A DNA stretch of 48,300 bases. Origin: a virus. Positions 976 through 47,420 of the stretch are shown here, one piece after another; position 1 is the stretch's first letter, and each line of letters starts with the position of its first letter. The stretch is from the IMG/VR virus record IMGVR_UViG_3300000839_000001; one strand, given 5' to 3'. Made by a program: the position numbers and the translations under genes. A model generated the notes under the pieces. That model did not search any database, had not been told where the DNA came from, and worked only from the letters and a program-made list of their open reading frames with translations.

Positions 976-1035
976 ATTAGATGAAAAACTAGGTACTCCG
1001 AGTTTCCTCCCAGTATCAGCAGGCGGAAGCCTGTT
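976..1035 (+). promoter_or_regulatory. conserved hairpin element, copy A (loop TAGGTACTCCGA on the + strand)
   Basis: attagatgaaaaactaggtactccgagtttcctcccagtatcagc plus a 7-bp hairpin agcaggc-GGAA-gcctgtt. About 45 of 50 nt match the reverse complement of copy B. Confidence 0.6.
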
Positions 1036-1072
1036 CACAACCACCATATCTAGCCAGCAACGGAGCCTCTAT

Positions 1073-1582
1073 ATGTTACAGTCACTATTACAAAAGAAAC
1101 ACGAATACGAACAGCGCCTACAAACCGCCGCATCATGGTTTGATATGGCCGATATTCTTTTAGAGTTGCGAGACTTCCGCGACGAACTCAAGAAAGTACA
1201 TACGGAAATTGACCGTATGTTCAATAACCGATGCCGACAAATTGGGGACGCTATACAGCAAGATATGCTGGAATCGATCCAACAAGGCAAAGAAGTCCTT
1301 GCTTCCCACAAGGCCCGCACATGTAGCTATTCCCACAAAGAGGACATTAGCTACAAGATAGCCGACAATGACAAGTTTGCCGCTTGTTGGGGCATACACC
1401 CCTCTTTAATCTCTACCCGCTTGTTTACTCCCCACTACGTCAACATGGTGGCGGCTCTGGAAAGTACACCAGCGTTAGGGAGTGCGTTGCAAGGTACTAT
1501 CGATATAGAGCGTAAAAACTCTATAACACTTCGACGCAATCCAGCACCCAAACAAGAGGATCACGACGACATACCTTTTTAG
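1073..1582 (+). CDS. hypothetical early protein
   Basis: 169-aa ORF co-oriented with its neighbours, preceded by the conserved hairpin element and the AACCACCATATCTA motif. Confidence 0.7.
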   Translation: MLQSLLQKKHEYEQRLQTAASWFDMADILLELRDFRDELKKVHTEIDRMFNNRCRQIGDAIQQDMLESIQQGKEVLASHKARTCSYSHKEDISYKIADNDKFAACWGIHPSLISTRLFTPHYVNMVAALESTPALGSALQGTIDIERKNSITLRRNPAPKQEDHDDIPF

Positions 1583-1655
1583 TATTTGCTTCACCATATC
1601 ATCACCATAGAGTGTTTAGACTACCTAAACACTCCCCACATAAAGGAACCGGAAC

Positions 1656-2159
1656 ATGAGTATTGCAATGGAAGTTATACCTTTTAGCGAGTACATAGCG
1701 AAGAACCACCAGCGATTGGTATCGACGTTATCGAACAAGATTTTTGACCGCTACTTAGCAGAGGAATTAATACAGAATCTCTGGCTCAAGTCGGCACGCT
1801 TGGATGTTCTCTACAATGGAACATCTAGTCAATTCACATTCTGTATCACCTGCGCCCTACGAAGGGCGATTGACGTTAAACGGAACGACAAGACACGTCG
1901 AGCTATCCTAGAGGAAAAGAAACTCTATAGCGATATTTACTTCGATGTATATGATACAACCGCAGAGATTATCGAGAGAGCAGGACTTACCGAAGAAGAA
2001 CATGTTCTCTTGTCTCTGTATCTCAAGGACGGCATGAGTAGTGAGGATATTGCTAGGCACTTACACCCCGAACCACGGTCTACGGTTTACCGTAGGCTTG
2101 ACAGGATGCGCATGAAGATCAAGACGACTATCGAGCGAGAAAGTAGAGGTGACGAATGA
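1656..2159 (+). CDS. ECF-like sigma-70 family RNA polymerase sigma factor
   Basis: Region-2-like AEELIQNLWLKSAR...ALRRAIDVKRNDKTRR. Region-4 HTH-like LTEEEHVLLSLYLKDGMSSEDIARHLHPEPRSTVYRRLDRMRMKIK. RBS aaaggaac. Confidence 0.7.
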   Translation: MSIAMEVIPFSEYIAKNHQRLVSTLSNKIFDRYLAEELIQNLWLKSARLDVLYNGTSSQFTFCITCALRRAIDVKRNDKTRRAILEEKKLYSDIYFDVYDTTAEIIERAGLTEEEHVLLSLYLKDGMSSEDIARHLHPEPRSTVYRRLDRMRMKIKTTIERESRGDE

Positions 2160-2884: not shown

Positions 2885-2895
2885 AGAGGTGATGA

Positions 2896-4581
2896 ATGTT
2901 CGGTCAATCAATCACAAACTCTCTGGCGGGTCTCGGCCCATTAGATAACAACGCTATGCAGAACACTACGGACGCAACTGTAGTGAAGAAAACAGAGCAG
3001 ACCTTTTTCCATACAGGCACTTATCTTACAAAGGATAAGTTAGTATGTCCTACACCGGGACTAGGTAAAGGTGGTTTATTATTGGTAGCAAAAGGGGATG
3101 CAGATATAGTAGCTGGAGAGGTTGTAAAATTCTTTGAGAATCGTCTAAAAGCTACGGGAAACCTCTTTTGGTTGTACTCAAGTGGAATATATGAAGCAGT
3201 TAAAAGCGAGCAACTTTGTTCTAGTTTGAAAGACTTTGTAGCTAGGAATGTTCTGTTAGATCAGTGTATCTTACGGAACGGAATGTTGGCAGAAAAACCT
3301 GATAACAGAAATCCTACTTCGCTAGTCAATAAAGACTTTATGCAGCAAATGCTACATGCTTCGCTCATTACAGAACAACAAGAGCGTAATAGATGGATTA
3401 GTGACGAGCCGAAACCTATAGAGTATCAACATGTGTTACCATGTCCCGACGGTCTGTACAATTACATGACGGGGGTATTATATCAAAATGATACAAGGAT
3501 GTTCTATAGGACACAATTGCCTATAACGCCGGACGGACGTGACCCATATCAGGAAGGTTCTCTATACAATAAGTTTATAGAGGAAATCCTGCCTGACCCA
3601 GCGCAAAGAGACTTGTTGCATGAATACATAGGAATCCTTATCGCTGGCGATACTCACTGGCAAAAGTTCCTTATGAAATACGGTGTAGCACAAGCGGGCA
3701 AGGGAGTGATCGACCACTTAATCACCTATCTGGTAGGAGAGAAAAACATAGCGTCAAAAGATGCTAACGACTTCAAAGGAGACTATGCTTTTGAAGGACT
3801 AGAGCGGGCTAGTGTGTGTTTTATGCACGAATTTACCGCGACTGCCGGAAATTTCCGGGGGTTTGTAGATAAGATAAAGAAGGTAGTAGGGGAAGACCCT
3901 GTAAGCGTCAATGCTAAATATATGCCTATTGTACAGATGAAGCTACCATGTAGGTTTGTAGTATCGACCAATAACATGCCTTTTTCAACGGAAATGTCCG
4001 ATGCCTTGAACAGGCGTATGTTGCCATTGCTTTTCACGGTAGAGATACCAGAGGAAAGACGGGATACATCACTGAAAGCAAGACTTACCGGCCCTAATGA
4101 GATTCAGGTATTGCTTTCACATTGTATACAAGGGCTTAAAAGGTTAAATGCAAATGGTAAATTCACCGAACCGCTTTCGACTACCGAGCTGCGTATCAAT
4201 ATCGATACGCAGCTAAACAATATAAAGGCCTTTGCTAGAGACTGCTTGCGACAAGGACAGGCTCAATTTGCTATACCTTGTGCGGTAGTGCATGATGCGT
4301 ATGTCGAGTATTGCCTTGACCAAGACAAAGGACAGATTAAGATAGCTAACTTGTTTGGTAAGGACTTGCGGGACGTATTCCCTAACTTGGTGGCGACTCA
4401 AAGAAGGGTAGGCGGGAAGAATATAAAGGTCTATGAGACTTTATCATTCGTTCCTTTGTATGTAGACTTGCAAAAGCTACTGAACGAGTTTTTCAAAAAG
4501 AAGTTTGGGCGACTTTTAGAACCGGCAGAAATTCAGAAACTTATGGGACTTACTAATACAGAATATGTAGAGGTGGACTAA
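2896..4581 (+). CDS. SF3 (D5 / P4-primase C-terminal family) replicative helicase-NTPase
   Basis: Walker A-like YGVAQAGKGV, Walker B-like VCFMHEF, motif C VVSTNN. RBS gagaggtga. Lies immediately upstream of the prim-pol gene. Confidence 0.7.
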   Translation: MFGQSITNSLAGLGPLDNNAMQNTTDATVVKKTEQTFFHTGTYLTKDKLVCPTPGLGKGGLLLVAKGDADIVAGEVVKFFENRLKATGNLFWLYSSGIYEAVKSEQLCSSLKDFVARNVLLDQCILRNGMLAEKPDNRNPTSLVNKDFMQQMLHASLITEQQERNRWISDEPKPIEYQHVLPCPDGLYNYMTGVLYQNDTRMFYRTQLPITPDGRDPYQEGSLYNKFIEEILPDPAQRDLLHEYIGILIAGDTHWQKFLMKYGVAQAGKGVIDHLITYLVGEKNIASKDANDFKGDYAFEGLERASVCFMHEFTATAGNFRGFVDKIKKVVGEDPVSVNAKYMPIVQMKLPCRFVVSTNNMPFSTEMSDALNRRMLPLLFTVEIPEERRDTSLKARLTGPNEIQVLLSHCIQGLKRLNANGKFTEPLSTTELRINIDTQLNNIKAFARDCLRQGQAQFAIPCAVVHDAYVEYCLDQDKGQIKIANLFGKDLRDVFPNLVATQRRVGGKNIKVYETLSFVPLYVDLQKLLNEFFKKKFGRLLEPAEIQKLMGLTNTEYVEVD

Positions 4582-5648
4582 TGACCCCAAAAGACTACAT
4601 AGATAGGGGCTATTACCTTATTCCCATTAAGCCGGGAACAAAGGAACCTCTATATGATCCGCCCCACTTTACCAAAGGAGCGGCGGATGCTACGCAAGAC
4701 TTGAAGCTGCTAGAGAAATATGAACACTTCGGACTGGTTTGTAACAATTGCACAGTCCTTGACTTCGACCTCTATAAAGGCATAGATGCTGGTATGCAAC
4801 AACTGTTGCAACAGTGCCTAGTCACCGATAGAGAGCGGCATAATGTGACAGTACAGAAAACCCCTAGCGGGGGATTACATATTATATATGCTAAGAATGA
4901 AGGGCTTAGGTTGAACATACCTAACCTTGATATACGCAATAGCAATCAGTATATATGCGTCGATCCGACTCCCGGATATGCTTGGTTCACCCATTGTAGG
5001 GATGGTATTGTCAATCAGAACTTTCCACCAGTCAATATGCTTACTACGTTTATGAGCAATGCTCTAGTAAACAATGAAGTACGTAGGACTGGTTATGATG
5101 TTCCCACAATCAAACCTACTCCCTCACAATGGGAAGGTATAATGCGATGGTTGCAAGGACAAAAGCCCGCTATAAGTGGGAATGGCGGACATAACCAAAC
5201 TTATAGAGTCGCCAGTGATTTGCGGGTTGGTTTCAATCTCGATACAGAGACGGTACACTGGCTACTATTGAACGTATATAATGAGAAGTGCCAGCCCATG
5301 TGGACGGAGAACGAGCTATGGCACAAGGCGAATAGCATTGTCGTATGGACAAAGCCGGGCTATCTGTTGGCTACTCTCGAAGCAAGACAAGAGATACAAT
5401 TACCCTATCGCATAGAGCGGGCGGGAAAGTATCTTTATGAATGTACCGATCCGAAGCATCTTCGGCGAGTGATAACTAAAATGCGGATAGGCTTCGACCT
5501 TCCCGCCGTGGCGGTTCTTAAACTGCTAGAAGTGTATAAACCAAACCTTCTACTTACTACTGAGTTGAAGGACTATGTATACAATCCAGATAACTTACAT
5601 AACCTTCCCGTAGGCTATATGCTTAGGGAGAAAGAAAGGCAACAATAA
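4581..5648 (+). CDS. archaeo-eukaryotic-type primase-polymerase (prim-pol)
   Basis: N-terminal YLIPIKPGTKEP. AEP motif I VLDFDLY (DxD), motif II PSGGLHIIY, motif III NLDIRNSNQYICVDP. ATGA overlap with the helicase gene. Confidence 0.7.
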   Translation: MTPKDYIDRGYYLIPIKPGTKEPLYDPPHFTKGAADATQDLKLLEKYEHFGLVCNNCTVLDFDLYKGIDAGMQQLLQQCLVTDRERHNVTVQKTPSGGLHIIYAKNEGLRLNIPNLDIRNSNQYICVDPTPGYAWFTHCRDGIVNQNFPPVNMLTTFMSNALVNNEVRRTGYDVPTIKPTPSQWEGIMRWLQGQKPAISGNGGHNQTYRVASDLRVGFNLDTETVHWLLLNVYNEKCQPMWTENELWHKANSIVVWTKPGYLLATLEARQEIQLPYRIERAGKYLYECTDPKHLRRVITKMRIGFDLPAVAVLKLLEVYKPNLLLTTELKDYVYNPDNLHNLPVGYMLREKERQQ

Positions 5649-5649
5649 C

Positions 5650-6882
5650 ATGACAAACGAAAGCGAAAAATCTGCATTGAAAACTGTGTATAGAGACAAG
5701 TACAAAGATGACGTTGAAAAAGTGACGTTCGCTATGCTTGCTCTGGATGAAAACATTTCAATCGAGCGAATTGATACGGTTCTCAACACTTGGGAGACTC
5801 TCTATGAAAACAAAGTAACGTGGACTCTAGGCTTTATGTCTGGAGTACAAGCAACCAAGTTGACAGACAAAGAGGTTGCTGCACACCGTTGTGATACAAT
5901 ACAGAACCTAGGCAGATATATCTGGTGGATACTTTCTAAAGATCAAGAGAAAACAACTGCCGATACTGCCGAGCTTTTGAACAACAGTTGTATCTTGTTG
6001 TTTACGTACAACTTGATGGGCTATGAGTTTGCGACGGTAGTTACGAAAGTTGTAGAATACGTCAATAATCCGTCAATCCTCATATACAAGGCTCTGTTTA
6101 AGGAATCGCCAGCAGAGGAACCGCTTCCTTATGATGCTTCACATCCGAAGTGTCAGAAGACTATAGAGGGACAAACTGCTTTTGTGAGTGTAATAGAGGA
6201 GGTTACAGAGATACCGAAGAACCTAACAATCGGCGGAGGTAGACTACAAGAGGTTCCCTTACCTCAAGACAAGTTCAGAGAGTTTCGTATCGCTCTGGAG
6301 CAGCGAAGAGTTTGCATACTTACACCCTTCATTCTGCTACACGATAAACCTGTACAGCATACTTATGAAGAACTGCTCTTGAGTACGTTCCAAATGGCCA
6401 AACGGAAGAACAGCAACTACGGAAACTCGGTAGCCAAGTCACCGTCACTGATTCCTGATATGTATCCGCAGCAAGCAATCCTTGTTCGTATGTCCGACAA
6501 ACTGGCACGTCTGCAATCGCTATATGCAGGTGAGCAAGATAAGGTAGGTGAGTCGCTTCGTGATACATGGGTCGACCTTGGTAACTATCTCTGTCTTTGT
6601 GCGGCGGTAGTGAATCTGCAAAGCCTTATTCCAGAGGAACCGACTGGAGAGCAGTTGATCGATGAACTGGAAGTGGTATACTACAGACTCAAAAGCGAAG
6701 GATATAGGGCTGGGCATAGTCAGAGTAAACCCCATGCTCTGGCTACTGCTCAAGAGGTGATCAATCTGATAAGTAATCAGTCTAACACTCTTGAGGAATC
6801 CTGTATATGTGCAGCAAGGGCTGTATTCTCTTTCCTTACGCTTGACGGAATGAGAAAAACAGAAGATGGCGAAAGAGTATAA
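5650..6882 (+). CDS. hypothetical protein, possibly two all-alpha NTP-pyrophosphohydrolase-like (DUF1599/MazG-like) repeats
   Basis: C-terminal KNSNYGNS...ILVRMSDKLARLQSL...GESLRDTWVDLGNYLCLCA resembles the DUF1599 signature. An N-terminal echo is HRCDTIQNLGRYIWWIL. Confidence 0.35.
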   Translation: MTNESEKSALKTVYRDKYKDDVEKVTFAMLALDENISIERIDTVLNTWETLYENKVTWTLGFMSGVQATKLTDKEVAAHRCDTIQNLGRYIWWILSKDQEKTTADTAELLNNSCILLFTYNLMGYEFATVVTKVVEYVNNPSILIYKALFKESPAEEPLPYDASHPKCQKTIEGQTAFVSVIEEVTEIPKNLTIGGGRLQEVPLPQDKFREFRIALEQRRVCILTPFILLHDKPVQHTYEELLLSTFQMAKRKNSNYGNSVAKSPSLIPDMYPQQAILVRMSDKLARLQSLYAGEQDKVGESLRDTWVDLGNYLCLCAAVVNLQSLIPEEPTGEQLIDELEVVYYRLKSEGYRAGHSQSKPHALATAQEVINLISNQSNTLEESCICAARAVFSFLTLDGMRKTEDGERV

Positions 6883-10226: not shown

Positions 10227-10398
10227 TTGCTGTGAACAGTGTAGGGCCTATACCTTTATGGTATTACATGATCGCTTTACTGGAGAGTATTACTTAACCG
10301 ATACAATAGGGTGTACGTTACATGGGTGTCTTACTAGACCAGATCAAATATGTATACATTTCGCCCTGAAAGATATGAAGAATGAGCAAGAAACATAG
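10210..10398 (+). CDS. small Cys-rich protein, member 5 of the CxxC family
   Basis: CCEQCRAYTF ... IGCTLHGC ... QICIHFAL. Confidence 0.6.
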   Translation: MIAVLNCCEQCRAYTFMVLHDRFTGEYYLTDTIGCTLHGCLTRPDQICIHFALKDMKNEQET

Positions 10399-10771
10399 TG
10401 AGTCAGACTTTACGAAACGCGTGACGGATCAGTTACGACCTTTTGGCTTTGTGATAAACATGGTAGTCTATAAAGGAATGAATACCTCTGGAACACCGGA
10501 TAGGTACTTTCATTCTGCTTGGTGGCGGGGTTGGCTTGAATTTAAGGCGGCCAAAGGCAGGCTTTCGGACTTGCAAAAGGCCACAATTCATTCATTAAAC
10601 AAACATTGCCCGTGTACGGCGTTTGTGATCCGTGAAGCCGTTGACGGTCATCATGCGGTCGAAACGGAAACCGGGGCAGTTTTGGGCCATTTTCGGACGG
10701 GCAAAGAATTGGTCGATTTATTGCATACTCTATATCAACAGAGTATACAGGAAGGTTGGATATGGAAATGA
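10382..10771 (+). CDS. VRR-NUC domain nuclease (PD-(D/E)xK fold)
   Basis: GTPDRYF...WLEFKAAKGRLSDLQKATIHSL matches the VRR-NUC D...ExK...Q core. Confidence 0.65.
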   Translation: MSKKHSESDFTKRVTDQLRPFGFVINMVVYKGMNTSGTPDRYFHSAWWRGWLEFKAAKGRLSDLQKATIHSLNKHCPCTAFVIREAVDGHHAVETETGAVLGHFRTGKELVDLLHTLYQQSIQEGWIWK

Positions 10772-26329: not shown

Positions 26330-26428
26330 GTTTCTAGCTTTCTAGTTAAGAGGAATTACTGCCTTATAGGCTACTCGGAAAGTGTTCCGATACTACACAA
26401 CAACTCGCCTTTGTATGTGTATTGTATA

Positions 26429-28648: not shown

Positions 28649-30010
28649 TTAGCCTTTAAGGGTATAGTCTATAGTTGACCAGTCACTTGAATGTTCTGCA
28701 CCTACTATAGCGTAGACCAGAGCATCTAGGTTGTTAGGAGAATCTGCTTTCGACTCTCCTGTAAAGCTCGTCATCTGTTTCTCTAATTCAGGGAATATAA
28801 ACGTATGATGAACTTTGTTCTGTGCGTATAGGTAGCTAATAGGTTCTGCTCTCAAATACTTACCACGTTTGGCGTGTACTGTGTAAATATGAGGGCAGGA
28901 TATACCTCTTTCATTAGCTGCGTGACGGATAGTATCTATGATAGTTTGTCCGCCTTGGTTTGTCTCTGCAATAATAGCGTCCGCTCTATAGTGCTCATAT
29001 AGCTGCATCGCTCGGTTCGCCCACTGTGAAGGTAGTCCGTGCATCGAGGAGTCATTTAGTATGAAGAAATGATATTCTCCATCTATCAAGGTTTTTCCCG
29101 CTACAATGATGCCAGTTTTATCACTACTTTCATTCGCTGTAACTGCCGGATCGATAGCAACCACTACTCTCTCAAGGGTAGGCATCATATCCGGGTGTAT
29201 TCGGTTTGCGTCAATAACATGCTGAGGCCATAGGGCATACTCTGCATTGTCTTGGAACTCACCTAGCAAGAATCGTTCTCTTGCTTTACCTACGTATCCA
29301 CTAAGTCGCGTCTTATACGCACTAGACAAGTTCTCCCAGTTATCATCTGGGTTCATTTGTATAGTGCCATATAGCTGTGGAAATCCTTCAATTGCTACCT
29401 GTAGCGTATGGTGTTTACCTTCAAAGAAGGTATCATATAGCCAGTGTGCCTTTGAAGGCGGGTTACAGTCTAGTATTACTTTGTTTACTAACTCTGTCCC
29501 ATACTTTACATGCTGACATTTCAAACTAGCTCGCGTATTCACTAGGTCAAATGCCTCGAAAGGTATAAGACTCGCTTCATTGAAATATATATGACCAAAC
29601 TCGGCCCCGAGGATTTTATCCAATCGCTCTTTATCCTCTACACCAGACATTGAGACTACTGAGCCTGTAGGATACGAAATAGTCAACTCTGTAACATTAG
29701 TTGTATATACTTTTTCGTGAAACTTCCTACCGCGGAGAGACTTTACTAATTCCCATCCCTCCATACGCAACATCTTCTTATACGTTTCGTTGAAAATACG
29801 TGCCCTCACATCGCTCTGTGTACTTCTCAGAATCGCCAGTGGGACGCCGTTACCTTCCATATCTACATACTGATAGCACTGCCAATGGAGCCATCTGCAT
29901 ATATTGATGGTCTTCCCTGAACGTGATCCTCCATAGTGGAGTTGGTTTGTTATAACAGGATCATTCAGTAATTTTAATTGTTCTAACTGTTTCGCCGTTG
30001 CTTTGAACAT
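28649..30010 (-). CDS. terLr: terminase large subunit
   Basis: Walker A YGGSRSGKT, Walker B-like HIYFNEAS, nuclease-domain VVAIDPAVTANESSDKTGIIVAG. Confidence 0.85.
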   Translation of the reverse strand: MFKATAKQLEQLKLLNDPVITNQLHYGGSRSGKTINICRWLHWQCYQYVDMEGNGVPLAILRSTQSDVRARIFNETYKKMLRMEGWELVKSLRGRKFHEKVYTTNVTELTISYPTGSVVSMSGVEDKERLDKILGAEFGHIYFNEASLIPFEAFDLVNTRASLKCQHVKYGTELVNKVILDCNPPSKAHWLYDTFFEGKHHTLQVAIEGFPQLYGTIQMNPDDNWENLSSAYKTRLSGYVGKARERFLLGEFQDNAEYALWPQHVIDANRIHPDMMPTLERVVVAIDPAVTANESSDKTGIIVAGKTLIDGEYHFFILNDSSMHGLPSQWANRAMQLYEHYRADAIIAETNQGGQTIIDTIRHAANERGISCPHIYTVHAKRGKYLRAEPISYLYAQNKVHHTFIFPELEKQMTSFTGESKADSPNNLDALVYAIVGAEHSSDWSTIDYTLKG

Positions 30011-38018: not shown

Positions 38019-38076
38019 AATAGTTACGTTACTCCGTATAATAAAGATACTATTCTGGGTACAGAGCAGTATCGAA

Positions 38077-39024
38077 TTACCGCCGATTCCTATATACTGG
38101 TCTTTGTTGCGGCTGGCTCGGAACAATACGCTGTGTATCGATCTGCTCCACCTTCACCTTGTTGTTCATAGCGTCCACCTCCCCCATAGCGATATTACCA
38201 GAACTCCTCGGCGTGACTAATCCGCCCAACTCCGTTAAAATACCTACATATTCAGTGGTAGTTTTGGCATCTGCAAGGTAAACAGCGTCTACTTTTCCAA
38301 TAAATTCACGTAATTTGTCGCTACCTGTCCGTCCCGCTAACATCGCCGCCATCACCCATGTACTCTGTACCTGTGACAAAGTGTTCGATGGTATCACCTG
38401 CTTGACATACTCGGTAGTAATGAGGTTCAACTGTTGCTTGTCTATAGCAGTAAAACTCGTACTATATTGACTGTAAAGACCCGCCAATGAAGTTGGGTTG
38501 GGCTGTGGCTCCGGGGTCGGTTGCGGCTCTGGAGTCGGTGGAATAGGTTCCGGTGTTGGCGGCACCGGCGTCACATCACCTACTGTGCTGAACTGTGTCC
38601 TCACCACATATAAGTGTGGAGTGTGGAGTGTGGAGTGTGGAGTGTCTTCTGCTCCCTGCTCTTCCTGCTCTGCGAGGTAGCTGCATACAATCAAGTAGGT
38701 CTCTGCTACCGGCGAAGTGAAGTACAACACCTCTTTCCCACTGTCCACTGCATAGGTATGTCTCGCCTCTGTCGTCCCCAACTTGGCCACCGTCCACTGC
38801 ACGTCTTGCAGTGTAGCAGTAACCTCTGCTGAGTCAGTAGCTACAGTCAATACGATAGGTAGCAACTTACCTGTTTTAGTCTCTGTAGGAACCGCCAGCT
38901 GATAAGGAGCCTGAACGGCTCCCGCTACTGAGTCCTCAGAGTATCTAGGACTCAAGGCGGGCTGGGCGACAGCACTCATTACGCTCGCCGCAAAAACTAT
39001 AAATGAAATAAATACCTTATACAT
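38077..39024 (-). CDS. secreted protein with a Pro/Thr/Glu linker, first gene of the minus arm
   Basis: Signal-peptide-like MYKVFISFIVFAASVMSAVAQ. Linker TPVPPTPEPIPPTPEPQPTPEPQPNPT. ataggcgagtat precedes the ATG. Confidence 0.65.
   Translation of the reverse strand: MYKVFISFIVFAASVMSAVAQPALSPRYSEDSVAGAVQAPYQLAVPTETKTGKLLPIVLTVATDSAEVTATLQDVQWTVAKLGTTEARHTYAVDSGKEVLYFTSPVAETYLIVCSYLAEQEEQGAEDTPHSTLHTPHLYVVRTQFSTVGDVTPVPPTPEPIPPTPEPQPTPEPQPNPTSLAGLYSQYSTSFTAIDKQQLNLITTEYVKQVIPSNTLSQVQSTWVMAAMLAGRTGSDKLREFIGKVDAVYLADAKTTTEYVGILTELGGLVTPRSSGNIAMGEVDAMNNKVKVEQIDTQRIVPSQPQQRPVYRNRR
38613..38646 (-). repeat. heptanucleotide tandem repeat (agtgtgg on +, ccacact on the coding strand), about 4.8 copies, inside a CDS
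   Basis: Read directly. Encodes DTPHSTLHTPHL. Confidence 0.85.
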
Positions 39025-39048
39025 ATACTCGCCTATGTCTATAAGTAG

Positions 39049-39104
39049 TTCAGCAAAGCTGCTGATACTGGATGAAGCTCGGAGTACCTAGTTTCATCTA
39101 ATCA
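39049..39104 (-). promoter_or_regulatory. conserved hairpin element, copy B
   Basis: cagcaaagctgctgatactggatgaagctcggagtacctagtttcatctaat. Stem atgaagc/gtttcat around loop tcggagtaccta. Ends about 25 nt upstream of the 39024 start. Confidence 0.6.
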
Positions 39105-39783
39105 GAGAGTGAGGGCAGGTAGGTCATCACTCTACCTACCCTCGTCGGTGCTTCAGTCCGACTAGCTACCTTACCGGATACTGCTGGTTATTAGGCAGTA
39201 GGCAGCTTCCCGCTTCGCAATATATCTTATACGTCCGAACGATAGGGTTTGTCCCGAAAAATCCCGGAAATTCTATGGTTTTGTGGATACGGCGGGCGGT
39301 TCCTTATATACGCTACACGGAATTGATTATTGTGGTGGATTTCAACTACCTACAAGGTGACAAGGACAATATCGGAGAGTCGGCTAAAATCGATTTTAAG
39401 AGGGTGTACGCTTTCAATGAAGCGAGATTGATCGACACATGGTGTTTGTGGTCATGTGGTCTATTGAAACTTGTACAATTTCAATACGGATTGCTTCCAT
39501 AAATTTGAATTTTGTTTTTGAAAATCAAAAGCTAGGGAGGTGTAGAGGGATATGGAGAATTGAATATCGTAGGAAGGTTAATGGAGTTACATAATTGGAA
39601 AGGTTGGAGAGGCTAATGAAGTTACGTAATTGAAGAGGTTTGAAAGGTTTAGAAGTGCCACGGCCTGAGATAACGTCGCTATGAGCACAGCTGCTATGGA
39701 GATCATAATCGCTATTTTATTTTTATAAAATTGAGGGAAGCATTTAGAACCGCCACCGTGACTATGTTTGATCGCTATGGACA

Positions 39784-39860
39784 TAAGAGTGTAACCATGA
39801 AGACTGCTGGAAGCCTAATAGTAGCCGCTGCTACGGAGTAAGAGTGTAACCATGAAGACT
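39784..39860. repeat. pair of perfect 22-nt direct repeats taagagtgtaaccatgaagact (39784..39805 and 39839..39860)
   Basis: Read directly. Each contains GTGTAACC. Confidence 0.9.
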
Positions 39861-39951
39861 TGCTGGAGAATTTGGGCTTGACGTGAACAGATAGGCGAGC
39901 TGCCCCGATCCTCCCATACTCCCTATCGTTTTTGAAGGTCTCCCCGTTCCC

Positions 39952-40030
39952 ACGAACAGAGCGGCCAAAGCAGGCAGGGCGATTGCTGGGCGGCTAGGGC
40001 GAAACGAACAGAGCGGCCAAAGCAGGCAGG
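39952..40030. repeat. pair of perfect 27-nt direct repeats acgaacagagcggccaaagcaggcagg (39952..39978 and 40004..40030)
   Basis: Read directly. Start-to-start spacing is 52 nt. Confidence 0.9.
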
Positions 40031-40091
40031 CGGTGTAGCGATTGATCGACCTCGCAAAGCAAGTATAGTTAGATTGGCGAATAGGGAGTAA

Positions 40092-40167
40092 GACCGTAAC
40101 CGCGCAACCACGTAACCATAAAATTAGGGATCGGCAATTGTGGTTACGCGGTTGCGTGGTTATGGTC
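40092..40167. repeat. imperfect 29-nt inverted repeat. Each arm holds three 8-nt-spaced G(T/C)AACC units.
   Basis: gaccgtaaccgcgcaaccacgtaaccata versus the reverse complement of tgtggttacgcggttgcgtggttatggtc. 25 of 29 match, with an 18-nt spacer. Confidence 0.8.
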
Positions 40168-40398
40168 GGTCGATTTGTGGGAATCGACTGAAAATTGGGT
40201 GTAACCGGGGCGGTTACGGCAGTGCCAGCCCCCGGTTGACGTAGTTACACCCTTAAAAATAGGAATATCTATTGATATGTAACGAGTAACTATTCTAAAG
40301 TAAAAGATCGTCTAACAAAATGCCTTTCCGGGGGGGAAAAAGAGGGGGGGAGACCTCGCTGGTTACACTGAAATGATCGTTACGAGCCGCCCGTAACC

Positions 40399-40439
40399 AT
40401 TATATATATATCCACGGGCCGCGTAACCGGCCCGTGGAT
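40399..40439. promoter_or_regulatory. (TA)6 tract abutting an 11-bp perfect GC-rich hairpin whose loop carries GTAACC
   Basis: attatatatatat, then atccacgggcc-gcgtaacc-ggcccgtggat. Confidence 0.7.
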
Positions 40440-40499
40440 ACGAAAGTAATCAAACAGGTTTCATAACCATATAACCGGAGCCGCCTCCCGGCAACTTGT

Positions 40500-40523
40500 G
40501 GTTACACGGTTACACGGTTACAC
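40500..40523. repeat. tandem iterons GGTTACAC x3
   Basis: ggttacacggttacacggttacac read directly. Confidence 0.9.
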
Positions 40524-40576
40524 GTAGATAGCCCATTCTGTGTAACGGAAAAGTTGTATCTATCAAACATTTCTAT

Positions 40577-40609
40577 GGGGGTGGGGGTGGGGGTGGGGTG
40601 GGGTGGTGG
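40577..40609 (+). other. G-quadruplex-forming tract: five G4-5 runs separated by single T
   Basis: gggggtgggggtgggggtggggtggggtggtgg read directly. Confidence 0.8.
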
Positions 40610-40630
40610 TTCTTTCGCTGCGTCTCCAAA

Positions 40631-40824
40631 CGCCGTAAGTCTTTATAGCGGAAGGGTTTATAGCGAAACTTCCGCAGTGAATCTACGTATTCGAGCGTGG
40701 CGATTCTCAAAAAACTAAGTGTCCATCCGGGAATTTCTCCCTATTTTTCTCGGAAATTTTCCAGCATCGGGGAAATTTCTAGCAGCACTTTTATCGCCAT
40801 AAGTCCTTTATAGGTAAAGGTTTA
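40631..40824. repeat. two imperfect 30-nt direct repeats (40631..40660 and 40795..40824), each followed by TGGCG(A/G)TTCTC
   Basis: cgccgtaagtctttatagcggaagggttta versus cgccataagtcctttataggtaaaggttta. Confidence 0.7.
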
Positions 40825-40978
40825 CGGCGGTTGGCGGTTCTCGACACGAAAAATTTCCTAGAAAATTCCCCCACTTTCGGGGGGTTTTATAGGATTTCCT
40901 CTAGCCCGCGGCGGTTCTAGTCGATATAATACAGTAGACGCGGGAAAGAAAGCCAGCCCGCAAAAACCACCATATCTA

Positions 40979-41011
40979 ACAGAAACAGGAACAGAAACAG
41001 GAACAGAAATC
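40979..41011 (+). repeat. 12-nt tandem repeat acagaaacagga x2.75, ending at the start codon of 41012
   Basis: Read directly. Confidence 0.85.
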
Positions 41012-41332
41012 ATGCAAAAGCACGAAACCTACAGAGAAATTGAAGCCTGTAAACGAAGCTACCTAGCCACTATCGTTCAGGGATTCCTAGAAGCCGCAGA
41101 GACCAAATATAGCTGTGAAACTAAGCTCTCTACAGAGGACTGTATAGTCCTCATTTCGGCCCCTAACGGCACGAATCTGCGAATCACTTCTATCACCCCT
41201 TACGAATACGATTCCGTCATCGTGCGAATCGAAGAAGAAGGAGTGAGAGGATACCGAGAACATCACATATATGATGTGGTATCTTGCCATGAAGTCCTCG
41301 ATAGCTACCTCGATGCCGACCTCGATATTTAG
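41012..41332 (+). CDS. hypothetical early protein, first gene of the plus arm
   Basis: 106-aa ORF preceded by a 12-nt tandem repeat containing aggaa. Confidence 0.6.
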   Translation: MQKHETYREIEACKRSYLATIVQGFLEAAETKYSCETKLSTEDCIVLISAPNGTNLRITSITPYEYDSVIVRIEEEGVRGYREHHIYDVVSCHEVLDSYLDADLDI

Positions 41333-42319: not shown

Positions 42320-42366
42320 ACTAACCCCGCCGAGGTAACCCCGGCAAAAAAGAAAGAGAAAATATC

Positions 42367-42978: not shown

Positions 42979-43139
42979 TCTCCCTAAGCCCCTACGGCGT
43001 AGGGACTTACATCAAAATCAGTCCCGTTGGCGATTCTAACGGGACTACCTTTACAGTTTAGTGTACTACCGTCATAGTACACTGCTACATAGCATCATCA
43101 CCTAGCCAGTCACCATATCTATCACCGGAACTATCTATC

Positions 43140-43415: not shown

Positions 43416-43512
43416 ACCTCTGTACGATATGTGTTGCGATATTCAGAGCGAAGCGTGTAGCCTACGGCTACTTGAGCGTTTGAATTTTGCTACATATTTC
43501 AGAACGTAGCGC

Positions 43513-43530
43513 GAAACCTGTACAGGTTTC
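43513..43530. promoter_or_regulatory. perfect 18-bp palindrome gaaacctgtacaggtttc (operator-like)
   Basis: Read directly. Lies in the intergenic region upstream of 43608. Confidence 0.6.
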
Positions 43531-43607
43531 AAAGCAAGGCGAAATTTATAACAGCCCCCATTACCTAGCTAACAATCCCACTTACACCATTTAGAGGAAC
43601 AATACCT

Positions 43608-44057
43608 ATGACTACTATCTTCAATCCGTCTGCCGCCCAAGTCGCAACACTTCCTATCCCTTTACAAGATAGAATTGTCTTCGGTAGCAAGCTACTAAAC
43701 ACGTTGCTAGTTAGCAATCTTGAGTTTGACTACCATGACGTGTATAGTGAGTTGACACAACAACACTATAGAACACCTATGGAATGCACACAATACGACT
43801 TTTTCCAACGTATCGAATCGCCGGACTGGCAAGTAGCCGTGTCATTCCAGTACAAAGACTATGATTTCCCTAGCAATCAAGGTAATCTCACTAACTGCTA
43901 TTGGGCGAGGTATCCAGTAGTATCCGTCATACGTAGAGTAGATGATAAACTCTATACTGTGCTGGAAATGACGATCACCTATGACGATGTTTTCGACGGC
44001 AACGATTGTACAATCGCTAGCAACACAGTTGCTATAGATACTGTTAGGAATACCTAA
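43608..44057 (+). CDS. hypothetical early protein
   Basis: 149-aa ORF. RBS agaggaac. Confidence 0.6.
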   Translation: MTTIFNPSAAQVATLPIPLQDRIVFGSKLLNTLLVSNLEFDYHDVYSELTQQHYRTPMECTQYDFFQRIESPDWQVAVSFQYKDYDFPSNQGNLTNCYWARYPVVSVIRRVDDKLYTVLEMTITYDDVFDGNDCTIASNTVAIDTVRNT

Positions 44058-44236
44058 CAGTATCTAAGGGAGTGCATTGACCTAACAATCAGAACCGCCA
44101 GTGTGATATGGGCGAATAGGCCATATCATGCTCTTGCTACTGTTGACGCTTTAGCGTCATCTTGAGTAGCATAGCTATTACCCTGTTTGGTAGTAGCACT
44201 TACACCATAACCGCCCAATAGGGCAAAGGAACACTA

Positions 44237-44629: not shown

Positions 44630-44888
44630 AGAGCAACACCCTAAACTTATAGCATACGTTCAATCCCGTTCCGGTATCTTTGGTATGCGACTTGACGGCT
44701 ACGTATTTGAGAGCAGCGAGACTATGGCGGGTTATTTCATTGAAGTATTCACCGAAACCAAGCGTAGAGGACGGCCCGCTAAAGGCCAGCACATAGCTAC
44801 CGTTTGTTCTTCCTCACTAGCGGTTCATTTGTCGGACTACAGCGAGATAGTCGAAAGTCCGAATGGCTTGGCTATTGCTTTTGTTTAG
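44622..44888 (+). CDS. hypothetical early protein
   Basis: Start moved to the ATG at 44622 (MTKEQHPKL), which follows agaggttatca and overlaps the upstream stop by 8 nt. Confidence 0.5.
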   Translation: MTKEQHPKLIAYVQSRSGIFGMRLDGYVFESSETMAGYFIEVFTETKRRGRPAKGQHIATVCSSSLAVHLSDYSEIVESPNGLAIAFV

Positions 44889-45009
44889 TAGTTAGGACAA
44901 ACTACTATTCCCCGCCCTGTTATACTTTAATCGGTATAGCAGGGATTTATATCGTCGCCGATCACTGGCGGTTCTATCAATACACAACCCAACAATCCTA
45001 ACTTACACC

Positions 45010-47187
45010 ATGAGTACAACGGAACAATCTAAAGTGTCAGAACAAAGAGTATGCAATGTTACTATGAAGGGAGAGCAAATAGAATTTGCCTTCCCGTTCG
45101 GGTACAAAGAATTGTCTAACGGCAAAGTCCCCTTTAGAGCGTATGATATACATGATGACGCCTATTGGGGCTCGTTCCCGGAAAAGTATACCGATGAAGA
45201 AGGTAACTATGTCGGGAGACAAGCAGAGCGGGACGCCCCCTTCTCTCTCATTTGGAAACGCCCAAAGAGGATAGAGATTGTCAAGGCTTTCAATCTCTTG
45301 CTAGAGCATTGCAACCCCGCCACATACAACTACCGCTTTGAGAGCAATACACCCTATATAGCACAGATTATGGGGGATAACCTCGCTCTTGAGAACCGCC
45401 AGCGATTGGCGGTTCCGTATATCTATCAAGCCCTTCAATATCCTCTTATGGAGCATCAAATAGAGGAAGTTAGCAAGGCAGCGCTATGTACCGGCAGGTG
45501 TAACTTTTCGGCAACCGGAACCGGCAAGACGGTGATGATTATAGCTACTATGTTCAATAAGTGGTTATTAGAAGGCCGACCGGATAGGCCCTGCTTGATA
45601 GTCTGCCCCAACCACATACGACTTGCATGGAAGCGAGAGTTTGACACGTTCACTAACCACAATGTGAAGTGTACAATAGTCATGGGTACACCTGCCCAAA
45701 GGAAATATATACTATTCAATGCCCTAGGTCAACCATTGCAAGATGTACCAGTGGAGTACGCTACTACTGGCGAGACTGGCACGAAGCCTATGCGGGTTAT
45801 AATTGCCGGATACGATACCGTCACCAATGATATACTTGACTTTATGATAGGTGACTGGTTTGCCGGTTGTCTTGACGAAGCGCATAGGATAAAAACACCC
45901 CTGACCAATAGAACGGAAGCTATCTTTAATCTACAAAGAAGGATTAAGCATCGCTATGTAGCAACAGGTACGCCGGACACCAATAGCTTTGCGGACGCGT
46001 ACACGCCTATAGAATGGGTGTTCCCTAACTATTTCGGCAAAAGGTGGCATGAAGACATTACCGAACATAGCGAGACACGTAGCACTGCCAGAACAGAGAA
46101 AGAGCGGAAGAGAGATAAAGAAAAGGCGACATTACGTAATGCTCTCAACAAGTATCCCGGTCAACCTAGCGGACGGACGGACGGGATACCTATCAAACCC
46201 TATATCAATGATTCTGAAAACAATCTTGGAGTAAAATGGAGTAGCCTTAATGGTGGACAAGAGCGTCTTATTTCCGAGTTTGGGACTACGGATAGTTTTG
46301 GAAAAGCAAAGAAGCTATATAGACATAAAGAACAGGAGTTTCAAGACCTTATAAAGTATGCTAGTTGTAGGTATCTCTTGACTGATATACGGGACGATAT
46401 GCCCGATCAAATCATGGAAGTCGTACCTATCGACCTTACCGAAGAACAGAAAGTGGTATACAAAGCCTTACAAGAGAAACTTTTGTATGCTATGGAGTCT
46501 GCGGAAGGTATGAAGACCGTGACAATAACGAACATGCTTACTCAATACTTGCGACTGGTACAAGTTACAGGCGGTTGGGTACAGTATGATGAAGAAAGCG
46601 GTTGGGACTTTGAGAACGGCACACTCATAGAGAGCGTAACTACTAGGGAAGACTTTGTAGACAATCCCAAACTAGATAAGGCTATCGAACTATGTCAGGA
46701 AGCGATAGTAGATAACAAGTGCATCATCTGGGCACATTTCCGTCACGACATAGACTTGATTATGTCAAGGCTGGCGAGTCTTGGTATAAAACACGCTAGG
46801 ATTGACGGGAGAGATACAGATAAGAATCGCCAAGAAGTCATACACGCTTTCAACAATGATTCTACAATGCGTGTACTGGTAGCTAACCCCGGAGCATGTG
46901 GGGAAGGGTTAAACCTACAAGGTGTTCAAGGTACGGAAGCTAAAGACTATGATGACGCTGTTCTATGTAACACGCTCATATTCTATAGTACCTCTTGGAG
47001 TAGTAAGGACTTTATTCAGGCAATGGCCAGACCATACCGATTGAATACTACATGCACACAATACATATACTCGCTACAAGCGAGAGCGTCGATTGACAAC
47101 TACATATACAGTGTTGTGCAAGGCAAATGTGACGCAAGCAGAGAGCTGTTAGGTGACGTTCTCAAACAATCTGTGGGGACTACCTAG
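45010..47187 (+). CDS. SNF2/Rad54-family (SF2) helicase-ATPase
   Basis: Motif I SATGTGKTVM, motif II LDEAHRIK, motif III ATGTPDTNS. C-terminal lobe GEGLNLQ and QAMARPYR. Confidence 0.85.
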   Translation: MSTTEQSKVSEQRVCNVTMKGEQIEFAFPFGYKELSNGKVPFRAYDIHDDAYWGSFPEKYTDEEGNYVGRQAERDAPFSLIWKRPKRIEIVKAFNLLLEHCNPATYNYRFESNTPYIAQIMGDNLALENRQRLAVPYIYQALQYPLMEHQIEEVSKAALCTGRCNFSATGTGKTVMIIATMFNKWLLEGRPDRPCLIVCPNHIRLAWKREFDTFTNHNVKCTIVMGTPAQRKYILFNALGQPLQDVPVEYATTGETGTKPMRVIIAGYDTVTNDILDFMIGDWFAGCLDEAHRIKTPLTNRTEAIFNLQRRIKHRYVATGTPDTNSFADAYTPIEWVFPNYFGKRWHEDITEHSETRSTARTEKERKRDKEKATLRNALNKYPGQPSGRTDGIPIKPYINDSENNLGVKWSSLNGGQERLISEFGTTDSFGKAKKLYRHKEQEFQDLIKYASCRYLLTDIRDDMPDQIMEVVPIDLTEEQKVVYKALQEKLLYAMESAEGMKTVTITNMLTQYLRLVQVTGGWVQYDEESGWDFENGTLIESVTTREDFVDNPKLDKAIELCQEAIVDNKCIIWAHFRHDIDLIMSRLASLGIKHARIDGRDTDKNRQEVIHAFNNDSTMRVLVANPGACGEGLNLQGVQGTEAKDYDDAVLCNTLIFYSTSWSSKDFIQAMARPYRLNTTCTQYIYSLQARASIDNYIYSVVQGKCDASRELLGDVLKQSVGTT

Positions 47188-47364
47188 TAACAATGCTAAC
47201 TAGAATTATTTGGGAAAATTTGAACAAAATTTTATTTTTACTGGGATTATGATTCGCCAGAAACGTATAAATTATGGTAACACGGGAATTGACCTAGTTA
47301 CCAACTACTATATAGCTAGGGGCCGATGCCAACGGCAGGCCCTACTATACAGTAGCATCATAAA

Positions 47365-47420
47365 GCAGCAAAGCTGCTAAATACCGGATAGTCTTCGGAG
47401 TACCTAAAGACTATCTAACT
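47365..47420 (+). promoter_or_regulatory. conserved hairpin element, copy C (same plus-strand orientation as copy B)
   Basis: gcagcaaagctgctaaataccggatagtcttcggagtacctaaagactatctaact. Stem atagtctt/aagactat around the same loop. Confidence 0.6.

Follow-up and report, generated by a model that had tools for sequence, protein, structure and literature searches.

We analyzed the window, the complete and circularly permuted 48,300-nt genome of an uncultivated phage for which no close relatives were found, and identified a directional cassette of about 60 nt composed of TTAGAT, a first hairpin (hairpin 1) with the apex TAGGTACTCCGA, a linker CC(A/G)GTAT and a second hairpin (hairpin 2) starting with AGCAG. 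The cassette occurs as full modules A, B and C and a diverged fourth, E, and together with the related hairpins D, F, G and H it forms a family of at least eight small hairpin elements, seven of the eight extragenic and in both orientations. This family is specific to the phage lineage, and A, B and C are its best-conserved members. The conserved apex and the compensatory changes in the stems point to a folded nucleic acid, as judged from the sequence, and we tentatively propose that the cassette may be a sigma-dependent transcription start driven by the host RNA polymerase together with a phage ECF-like sigma factor.

The 11-mer TAGGTACTCCG occurs exactly three times, at 990-1000 (+), 39080-39090 (-) and 47396-47406 (-), and identity among A, B and C extends to the 12-mer given above. 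With up to one mismatch there are six matches against 1.01 expected (0 of 100 shuffles gave six), and the three one-mismatch matches (2710, 13583 and 37950) carry no other feature of the element. In each of these three modules, TTAGAT lies 5-7 nt upstream of the core and CC(A/G)GTAT 7-8 nt downstream of it, followed by the AGCAG that opens the small hairpin. The spacing from GGTAC to RGTAT is 14-15 nt, with spacers that are variable in sequence and nearly fixed in length. An earlier note on this DNA had described a three-copy element; the core is indeed found three times at the positions it gave, but the element is not limited to three copies, as E and the hairpins D, F, G and H were also found.

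Module A (977..1035, plus strand; 54.9 bits) includes hairpin 1 at 980-1009 with its apex at 990-1001, the linker CCAGTATC, and hairpin 2 (AGCAGGC-GGAA-GCCTGTT, 1018-1035). It is located 37 nt upstream of the ATG at 1073, where the first gene of the sigma/replication operon starts (gene 1073-1582). Module B (39046..39101, minus strand; 65.9 bits), with TTAGAT, hairpin 1 at 39071-39098, the same linker CCAGTATC and hairpin 2 at 39051-39061, sits 24-25 nt ahead of the ATG at 39024, where the first gene of a 25-kb minus-strand structural operon begins. Module C (47362..47418, minus strand; 57.7 bits) is organized in the same way (TTAGAT, hairpin 1 at 47387-47415, linker CCGGTATTT, hairpin 2 at 47364-47378) and is inverted relative to its flanking genes, 45010-47187 and 47433-47756; an unoriented hairpin (47318..47345; z -2.7) separates it from the SNF2 gene. 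The start-codon distances and the inversion of C agree with the earlier note, as does its observation that the small hairpin keeps its pairing with different sequences: CAGGC-GGAA-GCCTG (1020-1033), CAGC-AAA-GCTG (39051-39061) and AGCAGC-AAA-GCTGCT (47364-47378).

Hairpin 1 forms an irregular helix with 13-14 pairs, capped by a 4-nt loop. Its apex region consists of a T-A pair, an A.G mismatch, a covarying pair, a G-C pair and a TAYT tetraloop, so that what had been taken for a 12-nt hairpin loop is mostly paired. The stem of C (GATAGTCTT/AAGACTATC) pairs at 9 of 9 positions and differs from A and B at every variable position, still complementary. The stem of B (GATGAAAC/GCTTCATC) pairs at 7 of 8 positions, the odd pair being A.C on the element strand and G.T on the plus strand, and B folds better on the antisense strand. 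The weakest stem is that of A, with four pairs, a 2-nt bulge and three further positions including one T.C mismatch; its lowest-energy RNA fold is a different structure. No T run follows hairpin 1 or 2 of A, B or C on either strand, and an intrinsic terminator (a G+C-rich hairpin plus a T run) was rejected for these modules on that ground.

Module E (47994..48049, minus strand; 60.1 bits, z -8.0) reads TTGAT-ACTGT-TATGTATTCAGA-GCAATATCC-GTATT-AGCAG, and two of its three apex changes are a compensatory swap from G-C to T-A. It is inverted relative to its genes and is preceded, in its own orientation, by a perfect hairpin (48048-48078). Indeed, a very stable hairpin lies 2-11 nt ahead of each of A, B and E; those upstream of A (928..970, plus strand, AGAGTCGCCAG...CTGGCGGCTCT; z -5.5) and B (39111..39143, minus strand; z -5.0), both at -24.7 kcal/mol, bear out the larger hairpins of the earlier note. 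In the hairpin at 928-970, which looks like a terminator or insulator, a variant of the genome-wide motif GAACCGCCA stands as an inverted pair. Element D (44012..44067, unoriented; 60.2 bits, z -6.7) is a near-perfect palindrome, TTAGATACTGT-TAGGTATTCCTA-ACAGTATCTA (44035-44066), at the end of gene 43608-44057, and also carries the hairpin AGCAAC-TGT-GTTGCT. Hairpin F (38046..38073, minus strand; GATACTGC-TCTGTACCCAGA-ATAGTATC; E 0.014) lies in sense orientation after the first gene of the structural operon and before the second, and is the only copy followed by a T run (TTTATTAT). Hairpin G (38930..38953, minus strand; GAGTCC-TAGATACTCTGA-GGACTC, then AGTAGC and a second hairpin; z -4.6) is also in sense orientation, inside the 5' part of gene 38077-39024. 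Hairpin H (1609..1634, minus strand; GAGTGTT-TAGGTAGTCTAA-AACACTC; z -7.1) separates gene 1073-1582 from the sigma gene and runs against both. All copies lie in a 12-kb arc around a region at 39.5-41.0 kb, which is non-coding and rich in iterons.

To assess covariation, eight family members were aligned over 11 pairs, with shuffles as control. In this alignment 85% of the cells pair, compared with 67% in shuffles, double changes are found at 9 of the 11 pairs, and the observed covariation score was reached in 0 of 500 shuffles. The members were chosen without regard to one of the covarying pairs, which falls within the supposed loop. Both hairpins covary, and the apex and the single-stranded linker stay conserved. 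The covarying stems reported earlier hold for C, but the stem of A is interrupted and that of B has one mismatch; moreover, A and B represent one stem type, so covariation among the three modules amounts to a single event (A/B type versus C type), with a chance probability of about 2e-4 for the six variable pairs of C. It is the eight-member result that strengthens the previous inference of a functional folded nucleic acid. Over the family, G.T and A.C mismatches divide 4 and 4 between the strands, and therefore neither strand is favoured as the transcribed one.

Rfam gave no match at the gathering score (at E up to 5, only chance-level matches appeared), and no homologues of the element emerged from motif scans of public collections. 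The covariance-model search proposed in the earlier note likewise found none in relatives (78 kb), and the element is absent from the closest relatives at equivalent sites. At the site corresponding to A, hairpin 2 and an ACCACC leader are all that relatives L011 and L028 carry. A remnant at 880..925 (plus strand), comprising a leader, a ribosome-binding site and a start that reads ATA instead of ATG, can be aligned with the 5' untranslated region that the homologous gene has in both relatives, and this marks 926-1072 as an inserted or duplicated cassette. These 147 nt bring their own hairpin 2, leader and ribosome-binding site. The comparison with L011 and L028, the remnant and the cassette's own leader together suggest that the unit is an expression cassette. 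The leader motif AACCACCATATCTA (1039..1052, plus strand), downstream of hairpin 2 of A, recurs upstream of 41012 and, with two mismatches, upstream of 43140, and L011 has ACCACCACAT upstream of two genes. Upstream of the early gene 41012, a TATAAT box sits at the place equivalent to the hairpin-1/linker part of A, followed by a hairpin and then by the same ACCACCATATCTA leader as in A.

The candidate sigma factor is encoded two genes downstream of A by ORF 1656..2159 (plus strand; 167 aa), which matches phrog_1740 (E 8e-15) and, over residues 12-157, positions 4-163 of the 165 of TIGR02937 (sigma70-ECF; E 2e-8), with a score of 34 bits that is under the curated cut-off of 42.9; weak Sigma70_r2 and helix-turn-helix matches were also detected. 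A homologue (31% identical) is found at the same place in L011, and the position is conserved in relatives. ECF sigma factors usually autoregulate, and their promoters are near consensus, with AAC-type -35 elements and 14-17 bp spacers (PMC5758882). In phages 7-11 and phiEco32, a few well-conserved promoters serve the phage sigma, and they precede the sigma gene and the late cluster (PMC4331800).

What we observed directly is the sigma gene, the pattern of conservation, where the modules lie and how they pair; the role of the blocks as promoter elements, the start site and the purpose of the pairing are inferred. In the proposed mechanism, the strong hairpin just upstream would stop incoming transcription, and the cassette would start a transcription unit by means of host RNA polymerase carrying the ORF 1656-2159 sigma, with the GGTAC apex as a -35-like block and, 14-15 nt away, the (A/G)GTAT linker as a -10-like block. 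Module A would then feed back on the sigma/replication operon, B would switch on the structural genes, and C and E would fire leftward, antisense to early genes. In favour of this sigma-dependent promoter, the phage encodes a sigma factor that needs promoters, near A and conserved in place in relatives; A and B precede the sigma operon and the 25-kb structural operon, respectively; and conservation falls in blocks at a nearly fixed spacing. The stable hairpins ahead of A, B and E suit a new transcription unit more than a leader, and the proposal is also consistent with the evidence for an expression cassette at 880-1072 and with the TATAAT box at the place of the hairpin-1/linker part ahead of the shared leader at 41012. 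There is no sigma-70-like site near B, and the only promoter identified upstream of it is a weak site about 680 nt away.

Several observations argue against it. A plain promoter does not need pairing, whereas both hairpins covary, including a pair within the proposed -35 block. The apex consensus TAGGTAYTC also occurs in D, G and H, and in these three no -10-like block stands at a fixed distance from it. RGTAT ends 1-3 nt before hairpin 2, and a start 6-8 nt downstream would cut into this hairpin, itself under selection. In addition, C and E oppose their neighbouring genes, the -35-like block contains TAC rather than AAC, and no comparable motif was found ahead of the sigma operon in L011, L028 or L005. 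The earlier note had offered a leader RNA, a cruciform or a promoter; each has a problem, and the sequence alone does not separate them. That note had overlooked the phage sigma gene downstream of A, the additional members of the family and the lack of the element in the nearest relatives.

A second possibility, which we consider rather unlikely, is that the two-hairpin module is transcribed and acts in nascent or mature RNA, where it could be a put/nut-like antiterminator, a processing site, or a site for a phage RNA-binding protein affecting translation or stability. Covariation of both hairpins around a conserved apex and single-stranded linker speaks for such a structure, and short mismatched hairpins readily fold as RNA. 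A, B, F and G are in sense orientation, with B, G and F stacked in the first kilobase of the structural operon, whose interior has terminator-like hairpins, and start codons follow A and B at 24-37 nt. Nevertheless, C keeps its apex and linker unchanged on the antisense strand and E and H are inverted too, which, with the even mismatch split, makes a sense 5'-leader RNA a poor fit; B, moreover, prefers the antisense strand, the strong hairpins directly ahead of A, B and E would block transcripts bearing the element, and no Rfam family matches. If C, E and H, the inverted copies, are read on the plus strand, they would present the apex and linker of A/B in exact complement and could pair in trans with the A and B leaders. 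Such a kissing-loop network, with the inverted copies in early mRNA, would time the expression of sigma and late genes.

An unlikely third option is a single-stranded DNA site, in which the hairpins fold during replication and are recognized by a phage enzyme, either as priming signals for a Prim-Pol or D5-type primase-helicase or as targets of a site-specific nickase. Priming signals of this type include ssiA and ssiB of RSF1010, and fixed nicks exist in the DNA of T5, phiKMV-like and tf phages. The phage does encode a Prim-Pol and a D5-like helicase, mismatches are symmetric between the strands, all copies cluster around the iteron-rich region, and orientation is not tied to gene direction: the apex is on the minus strand in six of seven oriented copies, a bias that is not significant (two-sided p about 0.13). 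The apex also shares TACTCCG with the phiKMV nick consensus CGAC-N5-CCTA/CTCCGG, a motif that is likewise low-copy and intergenic, precedes genes by 30-55 nt and was initially annotated as a promoter; the apex is also similar to TACTACG/AC, the nick sequence that pMV158 carries in a hairpin loop. However, a 7-mer match among many compared motifs could be chance, the nick sites of LUZ19 lack a comparable hairpin and are all on one strand while A here is on the other, and no nickase or HUH protein was identified in the genome (only a weak VRR-NUC match). This option also leaves the cassette's own leader and ribosome-binding site unexplained. A cruciform in duplex DNA is itself unlikely, since the stems are short and mismatched.

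We regard it as quite improbable that the elements are REP-like palindromes which duplication or recombination has scattered over intergenic DNA in both orientations, with only a generic action. They could be transcription or exonuclease barriers, or recombination sites that shuffle regulatory cassettes as in T4-type phages. The imperfect palindromes number at least eight, seven of them extragenic; both orientations occur, and other hairpins are often nearby. This fits the possibility, as do their absence from equivalent sites in the closest relatives and the evidence for cassette insertion. Yet A, B and C agree at 12 + 6 + 7 + 5 positions while C has changed at each of its variable stem positions, making neutral or generic hairpins a poor fit; there are only eight copies, and no REP-associated tyrosine transposase was found among the ORFs scanned against Pfam, PHROGs and NCBIfam. 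Finally, we think it very improbable that host RNA polymerase, with the ECF-like sigma or another phage factor, reads its upstream element as a hairpin apex formed by one DNA strand, the N4 hairpin-promoter logic moved to a bacterial-type, sigma-dependent polymerase, even though this, if true, would explain the promoter-like blocks, the covarying stems and the unchanged inverted C, which would be a leftward promoter antisense to early genes.

Among known systems, the sigma-dependent promoter that we favour resembles those of phiEco32 gp36 and phage 7-11 in having a few highly conserved copies ahead of a sigma operon and a structural cluster (PMC4331800), and phage-sigma or autoregulated ECF promoters in its two putative promoter blocks and nearly fixed 14-15 nt spacer (PMC4331800, PMC5758882). 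An SU10-type capsid protein is found in relatives of this phage and in the phiEco32-like group. Unlike phage-sigma and ECF promoters, the cassette has covarying hairpins, its -35-like block (GGTAC, not an AAC motif) is a hairpin apex, and two copies oppose local genes; co-orientation with the driven genes, an ECF-promoter trait, is seen for A and B and not for C and E.

The promoters of the N4 virion RNA polymerase, about three copies, are hairpins recognized through specific apex bases, and in these respects the cassette is similar. However, the promoter hairpins of N4, with stems of 5-7 bp and loops of 3 nt, drive early genes and depend on a giant virion polymerase, whereas here a 13-14-pair irregular helix with a 4-nt loop heads middle and late operons. 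We rejected an N4-type promoter on stem and loop size, gene class, and the absence of an RNA polymerase domain from the large ORFs (725, 765, 967 and 1275 aa) in domain searches. Like the put RNAs of HK022 and the nut sites of lambda, the cassette has two adjacent stem-loops that copies share, with compensatory changes, at the start of long operons with terminators; put and nut lie downstream of promoters and in sense orientation only, whereas our family includes the inverted C, E and H, its modules come after strong hairpins, and Rfam gives no match. REP/BIME sequences, imperfect palindromes some 35 nt long, occur in either orientation and beside other hairpins in intergenic DNA that is transcribed, and the extragenic position (7/8) and mixed orientation of our elements are alike; REP/BIME sequences, however, number hundreds per bacterial genome, with a GTAG foot and a dedicated transposase, compared with eight copies, a TTAGAT foot and no transposase found here.

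The localized nick sites of phiKMV-like phages (CGAC-N5-CCTA/CTCCGG) are low-copy, intergenic and were once annotated as a phage promoter (PMC3517423, PMC3604761). They share with our core the 7-mer TACTCCG and an upstream block a few bases away, but only 7 of 10 core positions match, and those of LUZ19 have no flanking hairpin and occupy one strand. We rejected the identification, as only TACTCCG of CGAC-N5-CCTACTCCGG is shared, there is no CGAC block, and A is on the plus strand while B, C and E are on the minus strand. Cluster K mycobacteriophages carry start-associated sequences and an extended form, whose function is still unknown (PMC3203893). Like our elements, these repeats are phage-specific and found close ahead of gene starts, and some contain inverted repeats; in their extended form the arms are conserved and the spacer varies, whereas in our elements the arms vary and the apex is conserved (PMC3203893).

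The earlier note had described a folded element in three copies, and all three were confirmed at their positions: modules A (977..1035, plus strand), B (39046..39101, minus strand) and C (47362..47418, minus strand). A scan of the window identified exact matches to TAGGTACTCCG at 990 (+), 39080 (-) and 47396 (-), and allowing up to one mismatch there were six matches versus 1.0 expected, with six or more in 0/100 shuffles. The three inexact matches, at 2710, 13583 and 37950, share none of the modules' other features, having neither flanks nor stems, and were rejected as family members. In the orientation of A, the three modules follow a common plan: TTAGAT, 5-7 nt, TAGGTACTCCGA, 7-8 nt, CC(A/G)GTAT, 1-3 nt, and AGCAG, the latter corresponding to the opening of a second small hairpin (hairpin 2). 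The variable stretches that flank the conserved 12-mer are complementary to each other and form the stem of hairpin 1, with 9/9 pairs in C and 7/8 in B, while the stem of A is interrupted (four pairs, a 2-nt bulge, and three more positions with one mismatch). The 12-mer had been presented as a conserved loop; it is indeed conserved in the three copies, but most of it is helix (T1-A12, an A2.G11 mismatch, the pair 3-10, and G4-C9) and the loop itself has only four bases, TAYT. For the hairpins of B and C, folding was supported on either strand (z -2.3 to -4.8), with weaker support for that of A. The larger hairpins reported directly upstream of A and B were confirmed, with very stable folds. 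Because A and B have one stem type, the covariation among the three modules represents a single event. This event is a strong one: comparing C with A and B, all six variable pairs have changed yet are still paired (chance probability ~2e-4).

The description as a three-copy element did not hold, as a search for apex-like sequences with complementary flanking arms recovered five more members in the window. E (47994-48049, minus strand) is a diverged fourth full module, composed of TTGAT, a stem, the apex TATGTATTCAGA and then ATCC-GTATT-AGCAG. D (44035-44066), whose apex is TAGGTATTCCTA, forms a palindrome that is nearly perfect, and the hairpin AGCAAC-TGT-GTTGCT comes after it. The remaining members are on the minus strand: F (38046-38073), between the first and second structural genes; G (38930-38953), within the first structural gene; and H (1609-1634), inverted, in the gap that separates gene 1073-1582 from the sigma gene. 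RNAalifold predicted a single 11-pair helix for the eight-member alignment, with 85% of cells paired versus 67% in shuffles. The proposed compensatory stem changes were borne out, since 9 of the 11 pairs are maintained through two-sided changes and the covariation score (0.56 versus 0.23 in shuffles) was attained by 0/500 shuffles, with the outer pairs biased because D-H were chosen partly for their stems. This signal was lost when partners were slid by one to three columns. The pair 3-10 within the apex, which played no part in choosing members, also covaries, being G-C in A-D, T-A in E and F, and G-T in G and H. Hairpin 2 shows compensatory changes as well (AGCAGC/GCTGCT in C, AGCAAC/GTTGCT in D, and CAGA/TCTG in E), and that of A has one additional G-C pair. 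The structure of the element is solid.

A covariance model, the check put forward previously, was built from A-E; within the window it recovers only A-F, and it found no homologue in 78 kb of relatives. Motif scans detected no further copies in viral contigs (IMG/VR), JGI metagenomes or 185,579 reference genomes; four IMG/VR matches were one unrelated A+T-rich coding sequence and were discarded as chance. The hairpin family is absent from the metagenomic contigs L005, L011/L007, L028/L024 and L025, which share the synteny of the sigma operon. Contig L027 and the ~40%-identical terminase matches were excluded as relatives, as they belong to different phages. No tRNA or known RNA family was found in the elements (Rfam). 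A two-copy 26-mer of L011 (GAACGCCGCTTT..AGTATAT) was discarded as a relative's sigma promoter because both copies lie in coding DNA; they encode a similar peptide (ERRF..Y), and wobble positions differ in L028. The relaxed pattern G[AT]AC-N13-16-RGTAT is far too common to be informative. The element is confined to one genome.

The existence of an identical ENA contig of 48,368 bp, together with a gene with 12/15-nt tandem repeats that continues across the window ends, indicates that the window represents a phage genome that is complete and circularly permuted. This gene (48114-48300 plus 1-873) carries the 12-/15-nt repeats TGCGGCCCCTGT / TGCGGCCCCGATCCC, encoding a Pro/Ala-rich repeat, and relatives have a Gln-rich repeat protein in its place. 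The rightward genes occupy 41012 to 13585, passing over the window ends; among them are small early genes, those for the SNF2 and D5-like helicases, a Prim-Pol (4581-5648), a family A DNA polymerase and a ligase. Leftward genes extend from 39024 to ~14230 and include the terminase, portal, capsid and tail genes. ORF 1656-2159 encodes an ECF-like sigma factor. No close isolate phage was found, and the nearest relatives are metagenomic contigs with 41-57% identity in the SNF2, primase and terminase proteins and 23-36% in sigma-operon proteins. Their gene order is maintained (SNF2 ... repeat protein, 168-aa protein, sigma, 236-aa protein, primase), and the major capsid protein of the closer relatives is of the SU10 type. 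Weak matches at 5650-6882 and 10382-10771 to DUF1599 (a nucleotide-modification-associated domain) and a VRR-NUC nuclease suggest that the phage DNA may be modified and that a structure-specific nuclease may be present. Several of the many ~40%-identity homologues of the terminase (28649-30010) are source-labelled as Planctomycetota bins (Thermoguttaceae, Planctomycetaceae), and these labels give a weak hint of Planctomycetota as the host group.

Both A and B have a strong hairpin upstream. The operon downstream of A begins with a 169-aa gene and the sigma gene, and the whole structural operon lies downstream of B, with G and F in the same orientation within the next kilobase. C and E are located on either side of gene 47433-47756 and point leftward, opposite to the local genes; a perfect hairpin precedes E in E's own orientation. 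At the A-equivalent position of L011 and L028, hairpin 1 is absent, and hairpin 2 (AGCAGGC...GCCTGCT) and the ACCACCACAT leader are retained. Window positions 880-925 align with the older leader, ribosome-binding site and start codon of these relatives, the start now being ATA. Next comes a 147-nt cassette, which holds the big hairpin and module A as well as another hairpin 2, another leader and a new ribosome-binding site. Given this decayed older leader and start and a cassette with its own 5' parts, the unit at A appears to be an expression cassette that was inserted or duplicated.

Six rightward genes are preceded at 25-47 nt by the leader motif AACCACCATATCTA or the related ACTTACACCAT, in most cases 5-15 nt downstream of a hairpin. 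A seventh case, ACTTACACCATG upstream of 45010, extends into the start codon itself. Sites of these motifs in the window include 1039-1052, 40965-40978, 43108-43121, 43582, 44209 and 45002, and ACCACCACAT is retained upstream of two genes in the relative L011 (1338 and 6096). Candidate roles for this motif include a transcript 5' region and a translation signal. Ribosome-binding sites of rightward genes are GGAG or AGGA. At several structural genes the normal GGAGG-type site is replaced by A(A/T)(A/G)GCGAGT, located 2-5 nt before the minus-strand start codons 39024, 24948 and 21884 (also near 26400). A sigma-70-like site was recognized by eye at 43050-43095 (TTTACA, 17 nt, CATAGT), overlapped by the hairpin AGTGTACTA...TAGTACACT; such overlap of hairpins with promoter-like sites may be a wider feature of the genome.

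The 9-mer GAACCGCCA occurs 23 times in the window versus 0.3 expected, rising to 66 when one mismatch is allowed (for example at 5509, 7126, 7864, 9974, 16104, 20921, 24275, 31939, 38889, 39747, 44092, 45393/45407 and 48052/48066). It is a DNA-level motif, because it is present in all three reading frames, and its orientation flips between gene arms, since the coding strand reads mostly TGGCGGTTC (36 versus 15). Inverted pairs form very stable hairpins at 928-970 (a variant), 45392-45415 and 48048-78. The motif, whose CTGGCGG is similar to the E. coli Chi site GCTGGTGG, is a candidate Chi-like polar signal or site for a phage DNA-binding protein. The 1.5 kb at 39500-41010 are non-coding and without ORFs, and are probably the replication origin and early control region. 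Repeats of the GGTTAC(A/G)CG type are numerous there, in either orientation, along with a 27-nt direct repeat whose copies match exactly (39952, 40004), G runs (40576-40605) and repeated GGAAATTT/AAATTTCC words. Similar words, GGAAAATTCC, are also present in L011 and L028. The relatives' long intergenic regions contain tRNA genes and repeated tRNA-like 3' fragments (GGTTCGATTC...; L005 1319-1379 and 12227-12247, L011 4480-4510, L028 3560-3680); the window has no tRNA genes.

We propose that the canonical cassette would be a module for transcription by the phage's own sigma factor, tentatively the most likely of its functions. The genome encodes an ECF-like sigma factor, A and B are suitably placed, conservation follows a block-and-spacer pattern, strong hairpins precede the modules, and the cassette comes with a 5' untranslated region of its own. 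The phiEco32/7-11 group and autoregulated ECF promoters provide precedents. However, a promoter acting as duplex DNA leaves the pairing of both hairpins unaccounted for, as well as the inversion of C and E and the presence of the apex in members without a -10-like block, and the predicted start would fall within hairpin 2. We regard the pairing as a real requirement, which may reflect insulation from incoming transcription or folded-strand recognition. A structured RNA, which we consider unlikely, would account for the pairing and for the conserved apex and linker, but not for inverted copies; moreover, G.T and A.C mismatches split evenly between the strands, and the strong hairpins directly upstream would block transcripts carrying the element. 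Both the pairing and the independence from gene direction would be expected of a single-stranded DNA site for priming or nicking, in a genome that encodes a Prim-Pol and a D5-type helicase and where the apex has TACTCCG in common with the phiKMV nick consensus. This possibility is more doubtful still, as no nickase was found, LUZ19 nick sites lack a hairpin, and the 7-mer match may be due to chance. REP-like repeats with only a generic role are improbable: they fit the way the family has spread and its occurrence in both orientations, but A, B and C have kept their apex and linker unchanged, contrary to expectation.

Promoters of phage-encoded sigma factors are known in only a few cultured phages, and we know of no published case that couples them with covarying hairpins. 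If the cassette is a sigma promoter, it would provide a sequence handle on the middle/late switch in an uncultivated phage lineage and raise the question of DNA or RNA structure in recognition; if it serves for priming or nicking instead, it would rank among the rare sites of this type that are legible from sequence alone. Under either reading the family is a small, clean test set for mutational work: a single genome offers eight copies that occur in both orientations, diverge to graded extents and already contain compensatory changes. The family further illustrates the insertion and duplication of regulatory cassettes in phage genomes.

Regarding known systems, an N4-type promoter is ruled out by geometry, gene class and the lack of a detected polymerase, and a T7/SP6-type promoter by the lack of any detected single-subunit RNA polymerase, although TTTAGGT of C also occurs in the SP6 promoter. 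No acceptable sigma-70 -35/-10 pair was found in or adjoining the modules, so a sigma-70 promoter was rejected. An intrinsic terminator was discarded for want of a T run, and a dimeric duplex-DNA operator because the arms vary freely between copies. The cassette is not a phiKMV nick site, the LUZ19 sites having no hairpin, and belongs neither to REP elements nor to any Rfam family. It would work most like the promoters of phage-encoded sigma factors, but it fails or leaves undecided several of their defining features. We regard it as a putative regulatory cassette of a phage, whose structural requirement is unusual and supported by covariation and whose genomic setting is suggestive.
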